64,000 bases of DNA, from contig JBDRSE010000156.1 of NCBI GenBank assembly GCA_043825095.1, positions 125,309 to 189,308 of the forward strand, read 5' to 3'. The translations under genes and the position numbers were made by a program. This document shows, in pieces, positions 33,334-43,124 of the stretch (within the stretch, counting starts at the first letter, position 1; each line of letters starts with the position of its first letter). The notes beneath the pieces were generated by a model. The model ran no database searches and was not told where the DNA came from. It saw nothing but the letters and a program-made list of their open reading frames with translations. This DNA is from a bacterium (GTDB lineage Bacteria > Myxococcota_A > Polyangia > HGW-17 > JAJRWW01).

Positions 33334-34575
33334 ATGATCATACCGGCGATGGAGCTATGCGGGGGTAGGGTGGTGGTTGCGCAGGCGGACGAAACGACGC
33401 TCGAACGCGCAGAGGATCCCGTAGAGCTTGCCAAGGTCTTGTATCGCTACGGCGAAATCGCCCTGATCGATCTGGACGCCGCACGGGGCGAGGGGGACAA
33501 CCTGGAGCTCATCCGCGAGATCTGTCGCGTCTGCGAGTGTCGCGTCGGCGGGGGGATTCGAGACGAGAAGCGGGGAGATGCGCTGCTTCGCGCCGGCGCC
33601 ACCCAGCTGATTGTGGGCACCGGCGCCGACGAGGAGCTCCTGGCGCGTTTTCCGCGGAAGAAGGTGCTCGTCGGGATCGACGTCAAGGACGGAAAGATGG
33701 TCCACGGGGGGTGGATCGAGGCCACGGACATAGATCCCGTGCAGCTCGCTGTGCGGCTCCAGGAGTACTGTGCGGGCTTCGTTTATACGCCCGTTGGACA
33801 TCGCGACCGATTGGAGCCGGCCGAGGTTCAACGCTTCGAGGAGCTCCAGACCGCCTTGCCCAGGCATCGGTTCATCTTCAACGGCGGATTCTCCTCGTTG
33901 GACGAGCTCCGCGAGCTGGACCGCATCGGCGTCGACACCCAGGTGAGCTACGGCTTGATCCCGGAGGGGGTGGATCTCGCCGAGGCCTTCGTGGCGGTGA
34001 TCGACTTCGAGAAGAGCAGCGGGCTCGTTCCGGTGATCGTGCAAGACCAGGCAGGGCAGGTACTGACCCTCGTCTACGCCAACGAGGACGCGGTGCACAA
34101 GAGCCTGCAGACCGGCAAGGCGACCTACTGGAGCCCCGGGCGCGGCGAGATGTACACGAAAGGCCAGACCTCGGGGAATACCCATGAGGTGATTACGGTG
34201 CGGCCGGACTGCGATCGGGACGCGTTGCTGTTCGTCGTCGAGCCCCACGGCGCGTCCTGCCACGTGGGCCGTTACGCTTGCTTTGACGATATCTCGTACA
34301 ACCTGCAGCGCATCGAGCAGATGATGCGCTCCCGTCAGGCGGCTGCGGACGCCCGCAAGAGCTACACGTCGCTCATGCTGGCGGATCGCCAGGCGGTGAA
34401 GGATCGGGTCCGCGACGAGGCCGAAGCCCTGGTCGCCGCGAAGAGTCGCGACGAGGTCCTTTGGGAAACGGCGGATCTCCTCTATTTCGTGTTGCTCCAT
34501 CTCGTAGGGGAAGGCATCACCTTGGACGAAGTCCTCAAAGAGCTGCGCGGGAGGGCCGGGCGTCGGAGGTCCTGA
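33334..34575 (+). CDS. hisIE: Fusion protein: HisA-like (beta/alpha)8 domain + phosphoribosyl-AMP cyclohydrolase (HisI) + phosphoribosyl-ATP pyrophosphatase (HisE)
   Basis: N-term IIPAMELCGGRVV...VGGGIR...NGGFSSLDEL (HisA/HisF fold); middle DCDRDALLFVVEPHGASCHVGRYACF (HisI); C-term ETADLLYFVLLHLVGEGITLDEVLKEL (HisE). Confidence 0.7.
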   Translation: MIIPAMELCGGRVVVAQADETTLERAEDPVELAKVLYRYGEIALIDLDAARGEGDNLELIREICRVCECRVGGGIRDEKRGDALLRAGATQLIVGTGADEELLARFPRKKVLVGIDVKDGKMVHGGWIEATDIDPVQLAVRLQEYCAGFVYTPVGHRDRLEPAEVQRFEELQTALPRHRFIFNGGFSSLDELRELDRIGVDTQVSYGLIPEGVDLAEAFVAVIDFEKSSGLVPVIVQDQAGQVLTLVYANEDAVHKSLQTGKATYWSPGRGEMYTKGQTSGNTHEVITVRPDCDRDALLFVVEPHGASCHVGRYACFDDISYNLQRIEQMMRSRQAAADARKSYTSLMLADRQAVKDRVRDEAEALVAAKSRDEVLWETADLLYFVLLHLVGEGITLDEVLKELRGRAGRRRS

Positions 34576-36362: not shown

Positions 36363-36367
36363 AATCG

Positions 36368-36440
36368 TGAGCCCAGAAGGAATCGAACCTTCAACCTCCG
36401 GATTAAGAGTCCGCTGCTCTGCCAATTGAGCTATGGGCCC
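36368..36440 (-). tRNA. tRNA-Lys (anticodon CTT)
   Basis: Reverse complement GGGCCCATAGCTCAATTGGCAGAGCAGCGGACTCTTAATCCG...GGTTCGATTCC; loop cTCTTaa. Confidence 0.85.
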
Positions 36441-36457
36441 AGAGCAAGTTTTTAGTG

Positions 36458-36531
36458 CGCGCCCGGGGTGACTCGAACACCCGACCTGCGGATTCGAAGT
36501 CCGACGCTCTATCCAACTGAGCTACGGGCGC
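36458..36531 (-). tRNA. tRNA-Arg (anticodon TCG)
   Basis: Reverse complement GCGCCCGTAGCTCAGTTGGATAGAGCGTCGGACTTCGAATCCG...GGTGTTCGAGTCACC; loop cTTCGaa. Confidence 0.85.
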
Positions 36532-36748: not shown

Positions 36749-39700
36749 ATGAACACTGTTTACTTGAGCACTCAGAGGTCTAACATGCGGAGAAATAAAG
36801 CCCTGAAGTGGGCAATCAGCGTTGTTTTCATCTTTGCCGTGGGCGCGAGCTGCAACTCGTCGGGCTGCGAGATCCTGCAGCCGATGCCGGACGGCAACGA
36901 GGTGCCGCCGAATCAGACCATCGAAGGCGGCATGCAGGTGCGTGTCACGGCCGACGGGTTTGACAAGATCTCGTCGATCATCCCCGGGATCCTGGAGAAC
37001 TCCGGGCTGGGTGCCATCGAGCTCATCGCGCCCGGAACGCCGTTTGAGGTCGGCTCCTGCGGCACGATCGATTGGGCGTGCATCCGCTTCCAGTACTGCC
37101 CCACGGGTTGCGGCATCGATGTGTCCATCCCGCAGGGAGGGGTGGACATGTACGTCGACACGGCCTCCAACATGCTGATGTTGGATCTCACCATCGACGT
37201 CGCCTTTGTGCTGGATGCGCACCTCGAAATCGACATCATGAACTTCAGCGTCCTCGACATTACCTGTGGGCTCGGGCTGACGACCTTGGACGGCCCCCTC
37301 CACGTGACCGTGGGCATCGAGCCCTATATCCGCCCCGAGGACGGCGAGCTGCGGATTCGGCTTGGTCACCTCTCCAACCTGGACATCAGCGGCTTCAACC
37401 TCAGTCTCCAAGGTTGCGGCATCGTCGGGGACTACCTCAACACGTACCTCGACTACGTCAACGACATCATCGACATCATCGATTCCATCCTCGGGAACGC
37501 CATCACCGACTTCATCATGAACCAGTTCCTCCTGCCGATGGTGGGCGATATGATCGACGGCTTCGTGCCCGACCCCCTGGGGCTCGAGGGACAGTTCGAC
37601 GTCGGCTCGCTGCTGGCGGGCTTCTCGCCCGGCGCCGAGGGCGTTTTGGAGCTGCGCCTCACCCCGGGAGGCTACGTCAACCTGCTCGGCAACGGCATGA
37701 GCCTGGGGGTGATCACCGGTGTCAACAGCGACGCTGATCCCACCACCCGCAGCGCGACCCTGGATCCGGCCACAGGTGTGCGGATGCACTCCGAGCCGCA
37801 CCGCAAGATGCCGCCCATGCCCACTCCGGACTTCACCGGTGTGCTGGCCTCGGCGCCGGCGCGCAGCGCCCTGTCGGGGACGCCGTTCAAGCTGGACGCC
37901 GCGAGCGAGCTGGGCGGCTTCAACGACAGCCAGTACCTGCGGTACAAGGACCCCAACAGCCCGCTCAACAACCAGATCGCTGACCTCGCCATCGGCACGC
38001 CCGAGACGTTCCTCGACCTCCTGGGCTTCCACCTGCTCAACTCCGGCGCGCTGTGCCTGGAGATCGGGACCCAGGAGGTGGACATGCTCACCGTCGGGCT
38101 GTTCAGCATCATGGTCAGCTCCCTGGGCGATCTCGTGGATCCCCTGGTGGGGGACGCGCCCATGCGGCTGGTGATCCGGCCGCAGACGCCCATGGACTTC
38201 TGGATCGGCAACCCGTTGGACCAGGCCAACCCCACCCCGCTTTTGAACCTGTATCTGCAGGACTTCCAGATCGACATGTACGCGTGGTCCGAGGAGCGGT
38301 ACACCCGCGCGTTCACCATGGCGGTGGACATGGAGCTCGGCCTGAACCTATTGAGCGAGGTGGACCCGAACGACGGGACCCTCTATCTCAAGCCGGTTCT
38401 GGAGGACGTAAACGCCTCGGACCTGACCGTGCGGATCCACAACAGCGAGCTCATCGGCGACAGCCCGGAGGAGCTCGAGGCGCTCTTCCCGAGCGTGCTG
38501 TCGATGCTCATGCCGATGATCACCGGGATGCTGCCCGACATCGCCATGCCGGAGCTCATGGGGCTCTCCATGGAGTACCTGGAGTTCCGCCCCAACGACG
38601 CCCAGAACATGATGTTGATCCTCGCGAACATCAAGCTGCCGTCGAACCCGGTTCCCCCGGCGCCGGTGCCCGTGCTGCCGGTGCGCACCAGCGCCGAGCT
38701 GGTGGACGTCTACGTGCCCACACCGGCCGAGTGGCGCCGCTCCCAGCTGGACGAGAGCGTGCCGGCCGCGGAGAAGGACGTCCCCACGGTGCGCATCGCC
38801 GTGAACACCCGGACCGCCGATTCGAGCCTTGTGGAGTGGCAGTACCGGCTGAACGCCGGCGCCTGGCGCGGGTTCCGCCCCGGACCGGAGCTGGTGCTCA
38901 CGGACCAGACCTTCACTTTCCAGGGCTGGCACCACATCGAGGTGCGCGGTCGGGTGCGCGGAGAGCCCCGCTCCCTGGAACGGCAGCCGGTGAGCTTCGA
39001 CGTGCTGATCGACTCCACGCCGCCCCTGCAGAAGGCCACCGTGGAGGACGACACCCTGATCTTCAACGGCTTCGACCTGGTGACCGCGCGGACCGAGCTT
39101 CGGTACTCCTACGAGTTCGAGCCGGGGAACTACTCGTCCTGGTCTGATCGGGGGTCGATGCCCCTGTCCCGGGCGCGGACCCTGGCCAAGGCCCACGGCG
39201 GCGTGCTTCGGGTGCGGGTGATGGACGAGGCGGGCAACGTCTCTGAGGCCGAAATCGACGAGTCCTTGATGGGCGCGGTGAACGTGGATCCCAAGGTGGG
39301 CGGGTGCGGCTGCGCCACGTCCGGCAACGGTGAGGTGCCCTTCGCGGTGCTGTTCCTTGGACTTCTGGGGGTGCTGTTTTTTCGGCGCGGCCGGTCGGCG
39401 AGGCCGGCCGGCGCGCTCCTCGTAGTCGGTGTGGCCGCGCTGCTCGCCCTCGGCGGCTGCGCGAAAAAGGCGGGCGCCGGGGACCCGGACGCCACGGTGA
39501 CCGTGCCCTGCACCGATGATGACGAGTGCGTGGCCCTGCAGTGCGAGGACGATCAGATCCCGCTCTGCATCGACGGTGAGTGTCAGTGCATGGACGATCT
39601 GTTGTTCGGCAAGACCGGCCCGTACACGTCGCTGTCCGTGTCGTACAGCGACGTGATGGTGGCGGCGTACAACACCCGGTACGGCGACCTGATGTACGGC

Positions 39701-40975
39701 CACATCAGCAAGAACGACATCGGCTCGAACCCCATCATCACCAACTGGGAGTTCGTCGACGGTGTGCCGTGGGACCAGGATCCCGACGTGCCGACCTCGG
39801 AGATCCGGGGCGGCATCCGGACCAAGGGCGACAACGTGGGGCGGTTCACGTCCATCGGCACCGACGACAGCGGCCAGCCCGTGATCGCCTACTACGACGT
39901 CACCCACGGCGCGCTCAAGATCGCCCGCCACGACGGCACCAACTGGCAGATCTTCGTGGTGGATGACGGAGGGAACTCCGAGTCGGCCGAGGGCGGCGAC
40001 GCGGGTCGGTACACGTCGATGTCCATGCGGCCCTCTGACCGGGCGCCGGGAGTGGCGTATCTGGTGCAGGATCTGCCGTCGAACGACACCAGCGCCACCA
40101 TCACCCAGGTGCGCTTCGCCCAGGCCATCACGGCCAGCCCCATGAGCGGCGCGGACTGGATGATCTACATCGTGGACGAGCTGGCGGTGCCCGTTCTGGC
40201 CGACGACGCTCCGCTGCCCGACCTGCCCATGGGCGTCGGCGTCACCACGTCCGTGGATCGCACCTCGGACGGCCGGCCGGTGGTGGTGTACTACGACTCC
40301 TACAACGGCAACCTCAAGGGCGCGGAGTTCGACGACGCCAGCCAGCAGTTCTTCCCGCCCATCATCCTCGACGGCGACGACGGCGCGGGCACCGACACCG
40401 GCAACGTCGGCCTGTCCCCGTCGGTCCGGATCCGGGGCGACGACACGGTGTGGCACGTGAGCTACATGGACGCCGCGCTCAAGCAGCTGCTCTACCTGCG
40501 CACGGGCGCCGACTCCATTATCGAGGTGGTGGACGATGGCCTGCGCGAGGAGGTCAACGATCTCACCGGGCTCCCCATGCCGATCTCCCACTTCGTGGGC
40601 TACGACTCCAAGATCACCGTGGCGGGCAGCAGCCCCGATCCGGCCCAGAACAAGGTCTTCATCGCCTACAGCGACTCCACGACCCACGAGCTGCTCTGGG
40701 CCGTGCGGGACCCGGCCGCGCCCACGCCGTGGATCACCAGCTCGATCATCGGCGGCGACCCGGCCATCTGGAACTCCTCCCTCGCGCGGTTCGAGGACAG
40801 CTATGGCGAGCCCTGGCAGGGCGCCTACGGCTTCTACGTCGGCCTCGTCGACGACCAGACCACCGCGTACCTCTGCTCCTACGCCATCAACGAGTGGGCC
40901 GAGTCGGACCTCTTCGGCAACGCACCCCTCAACTACTGGGTGCAGATCTTCGCCAAGGCGCTGTCCGAAGGCTAA
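36749..40975 (+). CDS. Giant (1408 aa) secreted/surface protein: N-terminal extracellular part ending in a MYXO-CTERM-like motif, continuing in-frame into a lipoprotein-signal-like segment and a C-terminal repeat (YYD..G.LK) beta-propeller-like region
   Basis: ATG with RBS gggag; signal-like N-terminus; internal GGCGCATSGNGEVPFAVLFLGLLGVLFFRRGR (MYXO-CTERM pattern) at ~39300-39400 followed without stop by SARPAGALLVVGVAALLALGGC (lipobox). Confidence 0.55.
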   Translation: MNTVYLSTQRSNMRRNKALKWAISVVFIFAVGASCNSSGCEILQPMPDGNEVPPNQTIEGGMQVRVTADGFDKISSIIPGILENSGLGAIELIAPGTPFEVGSCGTIDWACIRFQYCPTGCGIDVSIPQGGVDMYVDTASNMLMLDLTIDVAFVLDAHLEIDIMNFSVLDITCGLGLTTLDGPLHVTVGIEPYIRPEDGELRIRLGHLSNLDISGFNLSLQGCGIVGDYLNTYLDYVNDIIDIIDSILGNAITDFIMNQFLLPMVGDMIDGFVPDPLGLEGQFDVGSLLAGFSPGAEGVLELRLTPGGYVNLLGNGMSLGVITGVNSDADPTTRSATLDPATGVRMHSEPHRKMPPMPTPDFTGVLASAPARSALSGTPFKLDAASELGGFNDSQYLRYKDPNSPLNNQIADLAIGTPETFLDLLGFHLLNSGALCLEIGTQEVDMLTVGLFSIMVSSLGDLVDPLVGDAPMRLVIRPQTPMDFWIGNPLDQANPTPLLNLYLQDFQIDMYAWSEERYTRAFTMAVDMELGLNLLSEVDPNDGTLYLKPVLEDVNASDLTVRIHNSELIGDSPEELEALFPSVLSMLMPMITGMLPDIAMPELMGLSMEYLEFRPNDAQNMMLILANIKLPSNPVPPAPVPVLPVRTSAELVDVYVPTPAEWRRSQLDESVPAAEKDVPTVRIAVNTRTADSSLVEWQYRLNAGAWRGFRPGPELVLTDQTFTFQGWHHIEVRGRVRGEPRSLERQPVSFDVLIDSTPPLQKATVEDDTLIFNGFDLVTARTELRYSYEFEPGNYSSWSDRGSMPLSRARTLAKAHGGVLRVRVMDEAGNVSEAEIDESLMGAVNVDPKVGGCGCATSGNGEVPFAVLFLGLLGVLFFRRGRSARPAGALLVVGVAALLALGGCAKKAGAGDPDATVTVPCTDDDECVALQCEDDQIPLCIDGECQCMDDLLFGKTGPYTSLSVSYSDVMVAAYNTRYGDLMYGHISKNDIGSNPIITNWEFVDGVPWDQDPDVPTSEIRGGIRTKGDNVGRFTSIGTDDSGQPVIAYYDVTHGALKIARHDGTNWQIFVVDDGGNSESAEGGDAGRYTSMSMRPSDRAPGVAYLVQDLPSNDTSATITQVRFAQAITASPMSGADWMIYIVDELAVPVLADDAPLPDLPMGVGVTTSVDRTSDGRPVVVYYDSYNGNLKGAEFDDASQQFFPPIILDGDDGAGTDTGNVGLSPSVRIRGDDTVWHVSYMDAALKQLLYLRTGADSIIEVVDDGLREEVNDLTGLPMPISHFVGYDSKITVAGSSPDPAQNKVFIAYSDSTTHELLWAVRDPAAPTPWITSSIIGGDPAIWNSSLARFEDSYGEPWQGAYGFYVGLVDDQTTAYLCSYAINEWAESDLFGNAPLNYWVQIFAKALSEG

Positions 40976-41071
40976 CCGCCCCAGGACCCTCAAGCACAAT
41001 CAGGAAGGGTCGAGGAGAGCAGCAGCTCTGCGAGGAAGAGACTCCCGGCAATGCCTCCGGCGTGACTGGCG

Positions 41072-41089
41072 TGTCAAGTTTACTTGACA
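41072..41089. promoter_or_regulatory. 18-bp palindrome TGTCAAGTT|TACTTGACA (candidate operator overlapping a TTGACA -35) upstream of the HTH gene
   Basis: Inverted repeat (mismatch only at the 2 central bases), 34 nt upstream of ATG 41123. Confidence 0.4.
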
Positions 41090-41122
41090 TCAGGCGCGAA
41101 CAGCCTACCCTGTCAGTTGAGA

Positions 41123-41595
41123 TGAACACACGCACGCTCAGAGCCCATTTGAAGGCAAGAGGATGGTCGCAAAACGAGCTGGCAAGCCGCATCGGCGTGA
41201 GTCGTCAGGCGGTTTCACTCTGGCTCAAACGCCCAGAAATATCGGTCCGCAGCAACCACCTGTTGAGCGTGAGCAAGGCCCTCGGTATCCCGGTGGAGTC
41301 GCTGGTGCAGCCGCTTCCCGCGCTTGGAGACGAGGGCGATCACGAACTGCTCCGCGCCACGTATCTGTGGGACCGCCTGTATCCGGATCTCGATGATTTC
41401 GCGATTGCCGTCAACCGGTGGGAGCCTTCCGCCGTGGGCCGCCTGGTGCAGGTCAGCGGACTGTTCGTGGCGGAGCGACTCCTGGGACGCGCGGTGTGGA
41501 AGAAGTTCGACCTGTACAAGCACCACATTCATTCCGCGCGCCGGCAGCAGCTGGAAGGCCTGGTCAAATGGCACGAGCACCCGACGCGCGACTAG
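41123..41595 (+). CDS. XRE-family (Cro/C1-type HTH) transcriptional regulator, putative antitoxin
   Basis: N-terminal HTH LKARGWSQNELASRIGVSRQAVSLWLKR; overlaps the downstream toxin-like gene. Confidence 0.65.
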
Positions 41596-42305
41596 CCCAA
41601 CGGGTGCTTTCGCCGCCGCTCTATCGCGCTCTCCGGCACGTGTTTGCGCAGGAGCCGGCCGGGTGTATGCTCGTCGGCGGAACAGCTCTAGCCGGCTACT
41701 ACGCGGGCCACCGTCGTTCCGATGATCTGGACCTGTTCGTCCGCGACCAGTCCGCGCTCCGGGCGGCCGTCGGCGCGGTCGAAGCACTGACCCGGCTCGG
41801 CGCTGTGCTCCACCCCCGACAACGCACTCCCCAGTTCTACGACGCAACTTGTGAGCTTTCCGATCACGCCTTCACAGTGCAGGTGGTTGTCGACGCACCT
41901 CTGCACCAGGTCGGTCAGCTCAGCCGCGCCAAAGACGGCGTGTCCGTCGCCACCCTCGAAACCCTGCTCAAGCAAAAGGCCGCCACGCTGGTCAGTCGCT
42001 GCTCCGAAAAGGACCTCTACGATCTGCAGTGGCTCCTGCAGGCCCATTCCGATCTGAAGCTCGATGCTCTCGTGGCGCTGGGTTCTCAAATCGACGGTGG
42101 GATGACTGCCGAGTCCGCGGTTGTCAGCCTGGTCGGCGCCACGCTCCGGCGGGCCGCGTGCGACTTCTCAATCGCCCAGGACAGCGCCGCCGTCTACCAG
42201 GACATCACCACCCTCAGAAAGTCCCTGGTGCAGGCATTCGAAAAGCTCGCCCGCAAAGAGCCCATCGGCGCCTTCGGCGACCTCGTCCGCAGCCTCAAGA
42301 CCTGA
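41568..42305 (+). CDS. Nucleotidyltransferase AbiEii/DUF1814-family toxin-like protein
   Basis: GGTALAGYYAGHRRSDDLDLFV motif typical of AbiEii-type NTases; ATG at 41568 overlaps the upstream HTH gene by 28 nt. Confidence 0.55.
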   Translation: MARAPDARLAQRVLSPPLYRALRHVFAQEPAGCMLVGGTALAGYYAGHRRSDDLDLFVRDQSALRAAVGAVEALTRLGAVLHPRQRTPQFYDATCELSDHAFTVQVVVDAPLHQVGQLSRAKDGVSVATLETLLKQKAATLVSRCSEKDLYDLQWLLQAHSDLKLDALVALGSQIDGGMTAESAVVSLVGATLRRAACDFSIAQDSAAVYQDITTLRKSLVQAFEKLARKEPIGAFGDLVRSLKT

Positions 42306-42365: not shown

Positions 42366-43124
42366 CTAGGGATAGACGTTGTCGATGCACAGGGCGGTGT
42401 CGTCCGTGGCCAGGGTGCACCAGTAGTCCACGCCCTGTCCTTCGTCGGTGCACCAGGGGTGGAGATCCTGCAGGCTCACGGTCTCCGACCCGGCGAGGGT
42501 GTCGGTGACGCAGCCGCTGTGACTGACCCCGTCAGACTGGCAGAACAGGCAGTAGATCGCGTCGGCCACCGTGTTGGAGACTACGCCCTCGATCAGGCTG
42601 CCGCCCGTGCCGCAGGCGCCCCCGGCGATCGCGCTCACGGCGGGGACGCGGTAGTTGCAGTCGTCCGAGCAGTAGTCGACATAGGGGCTGCCCACGGGCG
42701 CGCAGGCCCGGTCCCATCCCCCGAGGCTCACGCAGCACAGGCTGTCGCACGTGCTGTCATCGATGCAGCTGGGCGAGCAGGTGGCGGGATAGTTCGGCGG
42801 ATCGCCGATACACAGCTCGTCGCTCTCACAGGTCTCGCTGCCGCAAGTCCCGGGCTGTCCGAACTCGGCACAGGAGTGCGCAGTGCACCAGCTCGCCTCG
42901 ACGCAGACGCCGGCCCCGCCGTTGTCGGCGCACACCTCGGTGGGTCCACAGTCGCCGCTGTCGTCACAGTCGGCCCCCTGGACGCAGTCGCCGAGCAGGC
43001 AGATCTCGGACGTGCCGTCAGACTCCGGACAGCCGCCGAGGCTCAACACGGCCACCAGGCCGACCGCCCCGAGCGCCGTCCGCAGGCCCGCGCCCCTGGC
43101 CCGCGCTGTTTTCGAAATGCTCAT
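42366..43124 (-). CDS. Cys-rich secreted lipoprotein
   Basis: Signal peptide + lipobox LGGC; ~40 Cys in 250 aa. Confidence 0.5.
   Translation of the reverse strand: MSISKTARARGAGLRTALGAVGLVAVLSLGGCPESDGTSEICLLGDCVQGADCDDSGDCGPTEVCADNGGAGVCVEASWCTAHSCAEFGQPGTCGSETCESDELCIGDPPNYPATCSPSCIDDSTCDSLCCVSLGGWDRACAPVGSPYVDYCSDDCNYRVPAVSAIAGGACGTGGSLIEGVVSNTVADAIYCLFCQSDGVSHSGCVTDTLAGSETVSLQDLHPWCTDEGQGVDYWCTLATDDTALCIDNVYP

Follow-up and report, generated by a model that had tools for sequence, protein, structure and literature searches.

A putative autoregulated cassette pairing a DUF1814 (AbiEii/MenT) nucleotidyltransferase with an XRE-type helix-turn-helix protein

DUF1814 toxins (AbiEii, MenT) are widespread tRNA-modifying growth inhibitors that have been linked to phage defence and to the physiology of Mycobacterium tuberculosis, and a recent proposal holds that very different antitoxins all make the toxin phosphorylate itself. 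A locus on contig JBDRSE010000156.1 from the genome of a bacterium of the class Polyangia raises the question of what kind of partner may accompany such a toxin, and of how this partner would control it. We analyzed a stretch of 64,000 nucleotides (nt) of this contig (hereafter the window), in which the region of interest was read directly and all open reading frames (ORFs) were listed. The cassette in question consists of ORF1 (41122-41595, 157 amino acids, aa) followed by ORF2 (41568-42305, 245 aa), both encoded on the plus strand and overlapping by 28 nt. We think it likely that these genes form a module for which both membership in the DUF1814 family and autoregulation hold, the two propositions being taken jointly.

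The two proteins and their pairing

Features of the two genes, with window positions:

41122..41595, plus strand: ORF1, 157 aa, putative antitoxin and autorepressor, with an XRE/Cro-C1 helix-turn-helix (HTH; residues 6-59) and an all-helical C-terminal domain
41329..41577, plus strand: C-terminal domain of ORF1 (residues ~70-152, roughly 90 aa), proposed to neutralise the toxin; invariant columns in alignments A1 and A3
41553..41558, plus strand: Shine-Dalgarno-like GGAAGG inside ORF1, 9 nt ahead of the ORF2 ATG, read from the sequence
41568..41595, plus strand: ORF1/ORF2 overlap, 28 nt, suggestive of translational coupling
41568..42305, plus strand: ORF2, 245 aa, putative toxin, nucleotidyltransferase (NTase) of the DUF1814/AbiEii-MenT family, from PF08843, PADLOC and AlphaFold2/Foldseek
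41676..41732, plus strand: catalytic motifs I and II, G37-G38...R49-R50-S51-D52-D53-L54-D55, invariant or nearly so in alignment A2
41976..42023, plus strand: motifs III and IV, K137-x6-R144 and K148-D149-L-Y-D152 (+DxxD), invariant in A2

An earlier note on this DNA had taken ORF2 for an AbiEii-type toxin on account of a motif stretch, and the translation does contain GGTALAGYYAGHRRSDDLDLF, within a product of 245 aa that includes VGGTALAGYYAGHRRSDDLDLF. A profile search agreed with this assignment: Pfam matched residues 20-177 to PF08843 (AbiEii/DUF1814) at 43.9 bits, above the curated cutoff of 22.5, and the PADLOC AbiEii model matched at 5e-12. Among the matches listed, nearly all ORF2 homologues carried a precomputed PF08843 match, and no family for the toxin was found in NCBIfam or PHROGs. 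In alignment A2, which comprises 29 ORF2 homologues that are 49-81% identical to the window protein, residues G37-G38, R49, S51, D53, D55, K137, R144, K148, D149, and D152 were invariant or nearly invariant. Motifs I-IV of AbiEii have been published as hG[GS]...R-x-x-x-D-h-D, K-x6-R and +DxxD (PMC3985639), and all four are present in ORF2, including V36-G37-G38, the family-specific R49, and D53-L-D55. The AlphaFold2 model of ORF2 (predicted local distance difference test score, pLDDT, 93.5) found its best Foldseek matches in the PDB among JHP933 (4ok0, 4o8s; 5.5e-8), MenT4 (6y56; 1.8e-5), and MenT1 (8an5, 8an4; 1.9e-4), all of them DUF1814 NTases and the top matches at a Foldseek probability of 1.00. 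The computed evidence shows ORF2 to be an NTase of the DUF1814 fold whose catalytic motifs are intact.

The coordinates that had been reported for ORF2 (41568-42305) are right, with a length of 245 aa plus stop rather than the 246 aa given. The 28-nt overlap with ORF1 also proved correct, as the first 33 residues of ORF2 are conserved and the alignment of homologues with 245-255 aa starts at residue 1. Public gene calls begin the toxin at Met34 (212 aa), omitting 41568-41666 in window terms, with examples in loci L081 (5166-5804) and L082 (1949-2587); they drop the 33 conserved N-terminal residues and conceal the overlap with the antitoxin gene. Because these residues are conserved, we consider the start at 41568 and the overlap to be right and the 212-aa calls to be too short.

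For ORF1, the gene and its length of 157 aa stood as first described, while the start at 41123 gives a frame with five stops and the ATG lies at 41122. Residues 6-59 matched HTH_3 in Pfam (E=1.7e-9), a profile search of the PDB retrieved the P22 C2 repressor at 2.7e-6, and the model superposed on the HTH domains of C.BclI, SinR, and P22 C2 at a root-mean-square deviation (rmsd) of 1.5-2 Å. HipB, PezA, and an Xre/MbcA-like antitoxin were also among its HTH-level PDB matches. The reading of ORF1 as an XRE-type rather than an AbiEi-type partner was upheld: at E<=1 Pfam listed HTH_3 and other generic HTH families for ORF1 and no AbiEi family, and AbiEi (6Y8Q) was absent from the matches of the PDB profile search. 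Likewise, ORF1 homologues bear only XRE-type Pfam matches. ORF1 thus falls outside the antitoxin type of AbiE and MenAT3 (the AbiEi/COG5340 family), which is defined by a winged HTH plus an AbiEi C-terminal domain.

The AlphaFold2 model of ORF1 (pLDDT 92.4) consists of a five-helix HTH followed by seven helices. The C-terminal region is conserved as LWDxLYPDLDDFAIA...A..RLV...GL...G..VW..F..Y...I.P.RR, with W83, D84, R107, and G113 invariant in A1 and A3. It had no Pfam match even at E<=10, and Foldseek searches of the model against the PDB and BFVD retrieved relatives for the HTH part only, none being convincing for the C-terminal domain. SinR, Stl, DdrO, and phage repressors were considered as relatives of this domain and rejected, their long Foldseek alignments having an rmsd above 10 Å. 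A total of 102 ORF1 homologues shared the same length and layout, and a search of 1.84 billion representative proteins with the C-terminal domain only yielded 109 clusters at 50% identity. Full-length members of these clusters have ~150-175 aa with the domain at the same position, and shorter matches look like fragments; within that search the domain occurs solely in the XRE-HTH plus domain architecture. The N-terminal SRQAVS.W helix was retained by the 25 aligned divergent representatives of A3. All named full-length relatives derive from environmental metagenome-assembled genomes (MAGs), and none from Pseudomonas. When contigs were scanned with the full antitoxin profile, generic HTH matches overwhelmed the result, and only L001-L004 are true relatives. 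ORF1 is, by computation, an XRE-HTH protein with a conserved and unclassified helical C-terminal domain, for which a role in toxin neutralisation would fit. In one further locus (L131:17-761) the 3' part of the antitoxin gene is followed by a second copy that would encode the C-terminal domain only. We rejected this copy as probably an assembly artefact, since it is an exact tandem repeat with ambiguous bases.

Scanning metagenomes with the toxin profile recovered 80 loci, 75 of which had at least ~95 nt upstream, and in all 75 a gene for an XRE-HTH plus C-terminal-domain protein was found directly upstream on the same strand. No intact toxin without an antitoxin gene was seen among these 75. 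The same pair was present in 8/8 loci from assembled genomes and long contigs, whose hosts are Acidobacteriota, Planctomycetes, Latescibacterota, Elusimicrobia, Spirochaetia, Bdellovibrionales, and unclassified bacteria, and the neighbours of the pair, where called, vary between loci. The antitoxin-first bicistronic order was found together with an overlap of 28 nt (24/65) or 34 nt (34/65) in 58 of 65 related loci. The toxin start there is usually preceded by a GGAG/GAGA-like string, and the overlap suggests translational coupling. Pairwise distances of the two proteins correlated at r=0.91 across 54 loci, a value reached by none of 2000 Mantel permutations. In short, the two genes are always adjacent, mostly overlap by 28 or 34 nt, and co-diverge.

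Decay of the pair was one-sided in two genomes, in which antitoxin gene and operator are kept and the toxin is truncated or internally deleted. In a Latescibacterota MAG (L086:5001-5821) the antitoxin gene and operator are intact and the toxin is reduced to residues ~10-80, and in a Spirochaetia MAG (L004:3995-4746) both are again intact and the toxin lacks residues ~43-173.

These patterns bear on whether the pair is a toxin-antitoxin (TA) system at all. ORF1 might instead be a dedicated repressor of a non-toxic NTase, for example a small-molecule- or RNA-modifying enzyme whose induction would follow a signal that the C-terminal domain senses. The pol-beta NTase superfamily has many non-toxic enzymes, the toxicity of ORF2 is only predicted, and the C-terminal domain could sense a ligand or dimerise as in SinR and DdrO, to which the weak long Foldseek alignments extend. 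However, ORF2 belongs to PF08843, whose tested members are growth inhibitors, and a strict two-gene unit amid unrelated neighbours, with a conserved overlap and toxin-only decay, is typical of a TA cassette. We therefore regard a non-toxic pair as very unlikely.

The putative operator and promoter

Features upstream of ORF1:

41072..41089, no strand: putative operator, an inverted repeat of 18 base pairs (bp), TGTCAAGT-TT-ACTTGACA, with 8+8 perfect arms; family consensus TGTCAAGTATACTTGACA
41084..41089, plus strand: candidate -35 box TTGACA, formed by the right arm of the palindrome, read from the sequence; the same hexamer occurs in related loci
41106..41111, plus strand: candidate -10 box TACCCT (TAnnnT), 16 nt past the -35 box and 10 nt before the ATG, implying a leader of a few nucleotides

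An 18-bp palindrome had been noted upstream of ORF1 and is indeed present. Its halves are not 9+9 as described, the centre not being complementary, and the real arms comprise 8 nt each (41072-41079 and 41082-41089) with TT between them. It does cover a TTGACA -35 box as claimed, the right arm being that hexamer. Judged from the window by itself, the palindrome does not exceed what chance would give, as GTCAA-N6-TTGAC with <=1 mismatch gave 1 match versus 1.07 expected; its significance comes from conservation in relatives and not from window statistics. The pattern was perfect in 53 of 68 non-redundant loci from several phyla, at the same position before the antitoxin start, and the flanking intergenic DNA of related loci showed no evident conservation. 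By our estimate, chance would produce this ten-base pattern in a 200-nt stretch at ~2e-4 per locus.

Among the 53 loci, a TAnnnT hexamer was found 15-19 nt past the palindrome in 37, and the gap from palindrome to start codon measured 27-32 nt in 32. With such a gap the start codon would lie at or next to the expected transcription start, and the ORF1 mRNA is therefore predicted to be leaderless or near-leaderless. A known example of a leaderless mRNA is that of lambda cI transcribed from PRM. The sole terminator-like match near the cassette (41059-41075) was dismissed, since it precedes the operator and such a match is no more than chance would yield.

A divergent subclade (30-37% identity; L150, L154, L157, L158, L161, L162, L167, and L168) offers a further view of the operator. 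Its recognition helix reads SRAAV(T/S)KW instead of SRQAVSxW, and it has a different palindrome, with a ACTATAGT core, located ~34 nt before the start codon and over the -10 rather than the -35 box. Of the evidence at hand, this covariation of helix and palindrome speaks most strongly for a reading of the palindrome by the HTH, and it suggests that ORF1 would bind the putative operator and repress from it. In summary, the 18-bp palindrome overlaps a TTGACA -35 hexamer, is conserved across phyla, and covaries with the recognition helix. The core of the earlier reading (an AbiEii-type toxin with an XRE partner, gene overlap, and a palindrome) is supported, and it is strengthened by the strict pairing, the conserved overlap, the conserved operator, and the helix/operator covariation.

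One locus departs from this pattern. In a Bdellovibrionales MAG (L003:3886-5043) the operator GTCAATCTTTGTTGAC is present and the antitoxin ORF starts with MSAQTLRALCQLRRINQSEL; a deletion or frameshift after the start removes the recognition helix but leaves both the toxin and the frame of the C-terminal domain intact. Either this antitoxin naturally lacks its HTH, or the sequence contains an error.

Toxin neutralisation and genomic context

We consider it probable that the cassette is a self-contained, autoregulated two-gene TA unit of the DUF1814 (AbiEii/MenT) superfamily in which the AbiEi/COG5340 antitoxin is replaced by a different protein. In the mechanism that we propose, an ORF1 dimer would bind the palindrome through its HTH and repress its own leaderless or near-leaderless bicistronic transcript, which would start from this promoter at the ORF1 start codon or a few nucleotides before it, and the coupled translation of ORF2 would begin inside the 3' end of ORF1. 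The toxin would block translation by adding nucleotides to tRNA 3' ends, like MenT1, MenT3, and the AbiEii of Streptococcus agalactiae. The C-terminal domain of ORF1 would bind ORF2 and switch the toxin off, most likely, by analogy with these systems, through auto-phosphorylation of Ser51.

The analogy has several precedents. Translation is blocked by MenT1 and MenT3 through extension of the acceptor stems of tRNAs (PMC10435456, PMC11375011), and the mutually unrelated antitoxins MenA1 and MenA3 induce auto-phosphorylation of their toxins at T39 and S78, two residues before the first catalytic Asp (PMC11375011). According to a 2026 preprint, AbiEi in turn induces auto-phosphorylation of AbiEii at T65, and on this ground the preprint moves AbiE from type IV to type VII, the type in which the antitoxin makes the toxin phosphorylate itself (bioRxiv 10.64898/2026.01.19.700257). 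In AbiEii, R63 precedes T65 by two residues and the catalytic D67 follows it by two (PMC3985639). In ORF2, S51 is invariant in A2 and two residues ahead of the first catalytic Asp, D53, which makes it a candidate phospho-acceptor. The spacing R49-x-S51-x-D53-x-D55 equals that of R63/T65/D67/D69 in AbiEii (PMC3985639; bioRxiv 10.64898/2026.01.19.700257) and of R76/S78 in MenT3 (PMC11375011). As judged by this motif spacing, S51 provides the Ser/Thr two residues before the first catalytic Asp that characterises type VII toxins. Phosphorylation was proposed because S51 is invariant and shares the spacing of the T39, S78, and T65 acceptors, and we put this step forward tentatively. The broader proposal, that the XRE plus helical-domain protein represents a further, structurally unrelated class of DUF1814 antitoxin that triggers Ser51 auto-phosphorylation, is possible and on the doubtful side.

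The chief rival to the phosphorylation step is plain sequestration (type II). The C-terminal domain of ORF1 would then block the NTase active site in a stable complex with no covalent change, and the complex would act as the repressor (conditional cooperativity). An antitoxin made of an HTH and a toxin-binding domain is the commonest type II layout, MenA1-MenT1 was initially read in this way (PMC10435456; PMC11375011), and the tight co-divergence of the two proteins fits a direct protein-protein interface. However, every biochemically examined DUF1814 system (MenAT1, MenAT3, and S. agalactiae AbiE) ends in Ser/Thr auto-phosphorylation, and the residue phosphorylated in them is invariant in the ORF2 family, so that we regard sequestration as somewhat unlikely.

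The module had also been called type IV-like, a label that follows the older classification of AbiE, which the 2026 preprint cited above replaces with type VII. In a type IV system the antitoxin would never touch the toxin and would protect or repair its target instead. This was the original interpretation of AbiE after failed pull-downs (PMC3985639), but it has since been revised for AbiE itself, and by Pfam ORF1 resembles no RNA-repair or tRNA-binding module. We consider such a mechanism extremely improbable here, while sequence cannot decide the TA type of the present module.

Several points weigh against an autoregulated DUF1814 module with Ser51 auto-phosphorylation. We infer that ORF2 is toxic, that ORF1 neutralises it and binds DNA, where transcription starts, and what the substrate is. 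The template modelling (TM) scores of the ORF2 model against known structures are only ~0.5, and searching the PDB by sequence, from either the toxin profile or the single sequence, returned nothing relevant, no solved DUF1814 protein being matched; ORF2 accordingly represents a divergent clade. For lack of such a match, the equivalence of Ser51 to the known acceptors rests on motif spacing and not on superposition. A strict sigma-70 scan reported no promoter at the operator, since the weak -10 TACCCT of the window fails the scan rules though the -35 box is perfect; with this negative scan, the promoter is argued from conservation. Finally, no terminator was detected downstream of ORF2.

The neighbours of the cassette that we examined are housekeeping or unclassified genes. 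In the window they include two large ORFs with no Pfam match, genes for a WD40 protein and a GGDEF protein, nuoG/H/I, genes of histidine biosynthesis, and a gene for urocanase. Directly flanking the cassette are a 1408-aa ORF (36749-40975, plus strand), which is hydrophobic over a stretch close to the N-terminus, and a cysteine-rich 252-aa ORF (42366-43124, minus strand), both without a Pfam match. A 413-aa ORF further upstream (33334-34575, plus strand) is a three-domain histidine-biosynthesis fusion of His_biosynth (HisF/HisA-like), PRA-CH (HisI), and PRA-PH (HisE). The description of the cassette as lying next to tRNA genes is loose: genes for tRNA-Lys and tRNA-Arg occur at 36367-36531, ~4.6 kb upstream, with the 1408-aa ORF between, and Rfam found nothing besides tRNAs in the window. 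That the cassette sits in an accessory stretch is weakly supported, as Pfam detected no integrase or transposase on most large ORFs within ~13 kb and the guanine-cytosine content around the cassette showed no anomaly.

No toxin relatives were found in sequenced plasmids and phages by tblastn or in a scan of IMG/VR viral contigs, and no antitoxin relatives in plasmids; with these searches negative, an origin from a mobile element or phage is not supported. Elsewhere, other TA genes occur within a few kb of the cassette: YoeB/Phd and TacA1 in L083:6705-8878, and in L086:2573-3198 a gene for a PIN-domain protein preceded by a small ORF, which hints at local clustering of TA modules.

This context also bears on the biological role. 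The cassette might act in abortive-infection phage defence like lactococcal AbiE, with infection releasing or activating the toxin, a role that is compatible with either neutralisation mechanism. Lactococcus AbiE and some DUF1814 pairs (RlegTA, SanaTA) lower phage growth (PMC3985639), and the toxin matches PADLOC AbiEii models. S. agalactiae AbiE, on the other hand, protected against none of 32 coliphages, the examined neighbours form no defence-island context, and relatives were not found on phages, plasmids, or viral contigs. We deem this role unlikely.

An autoregulated DUF1814 cassette of this kind would matter in several ways. The family is coherent, with ~109 clusters at 50% identity from several phyla and mostly uncultured bacteria, and it pairs a DUF1814 toxin with yet another type of antitoxin, whose proposed neutralising domain has no known relatives. 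Because the cassette is small and has only two genes, it allows a direct test of how general the auto-phosphorylation model is. It would add a new antitoxin domain to the annotation of TA and defence systems, where pipelines now say only "helix-turn-helix protein", and the covariation of operator and recognition helix provides a ready-made specificity pair for repressor engineering. Should Ser51 auto-phosphorylation hold, induced auto-phosphorylation would be inherent in the toxin fold, with several unrelated partner folds having come to trigger it independently, and the cassette would be a compact model for studying it, with an antitoxin of ~155 aa, a conserved operator, and a leaderless transcript. 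The general picture is unchanged, since the swapping of antitoxin partners is already well known.

Comparison with known systems

The AbiEi-AbiEii systems of Lactococcus lactis and S. agalactiae and MenA3-MenT3 of M. tuberculosis resemble the cassette in being bicistronic with the antitoxin gene first. Their toxin is likewise a pol-beta NTase of the DUF1814 family in which motifs I-IV are present and a Ser/Thr stands two positions ahead of the first catalytic Asp. Their antitoxin combines DNA binding by an N-terminal domain with antitoxicity of a C-terminal one, the latter being proposed in the case of ORF1. AbiE autoregulates via inverted repeats in its promoter. In contrast, the antitoxin DNA-binding domain of these systems is a winged helix, whereas ORF1 is unrelated, has a Cro/C1-type HTH, and had no AbiEi Pfam family listed. 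AbiEi-type C-termini are described as including beta-sheet elements, whereas the C-terminal domain of ORF1 is predicted to be all-helical. Further differences are that ORF2 is too divergent for a sequence match to solved members, and that at the present locus a single 18-bp putative operator covers the -35 box and the transcript is predicted to be leaderless.

Known partners of DUF1814 toxins comprise COG5340 proteins (AbiEi, MenA3, MenA4), COG4861 (MenA2), and the small MenA1 (PMC3968373, PMC3632139, PMC11375011). MenA1-MenT1 (Rv0078B-Rv0078A) is similar to the cassette in combining a DUF1814 toxin with a non-COG5340 partner, and the model of ORF2 has MenT1 as one of its best structural matches. 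Helical elements of MenA1 suffice to induce auto-phosphorylation (PMC11375011). MenA1 and the ORF1 C-terminal domain share no sequence similarity, the PDB profile search having listed HTH proteins only.

Type II antitoxins of the XRE/HTH kind (HigA, HipB, Xre-RES/MbcA-like, and PezA) share with ORF1 the N-terminal Cro/C1 HTH. In them this HTH represses its own operon at a palindrome overlapping the promoter, and a separate region handles the toxin, as we propose for ORF1. Their toxins, however, are RelE-like, kinase, RES, or zeta proteins and not DUF1814, and no match was found between the ORF1 C-terminal domain and any of the domains by which they bind toxins.

In the literature, we found no described family or experiment for an ORF1-type antitoxin. 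The excerpts of the TASmania table of most enriched pairs list AbiEi_4.AbiEii, and HTH_3.AbiEii is absent from these excerpts. A survey of Pseudomonas aeruginosa counted abiEii-HTH_XRE and abiEii-higA pairs by computation and left their category unresolved (PMC9424990). The likeness of these pairs to the cassette is one of domains, an AbiEii-domain toxin beside an XRE-type HTH gene. The toxin family of the cassette is thus already known and its antitoxin partner is undescribed, while an XRE-type partner as such is not wholly unprecedented, because the abiEii-HTH_XRE pairing was counted in that survey.

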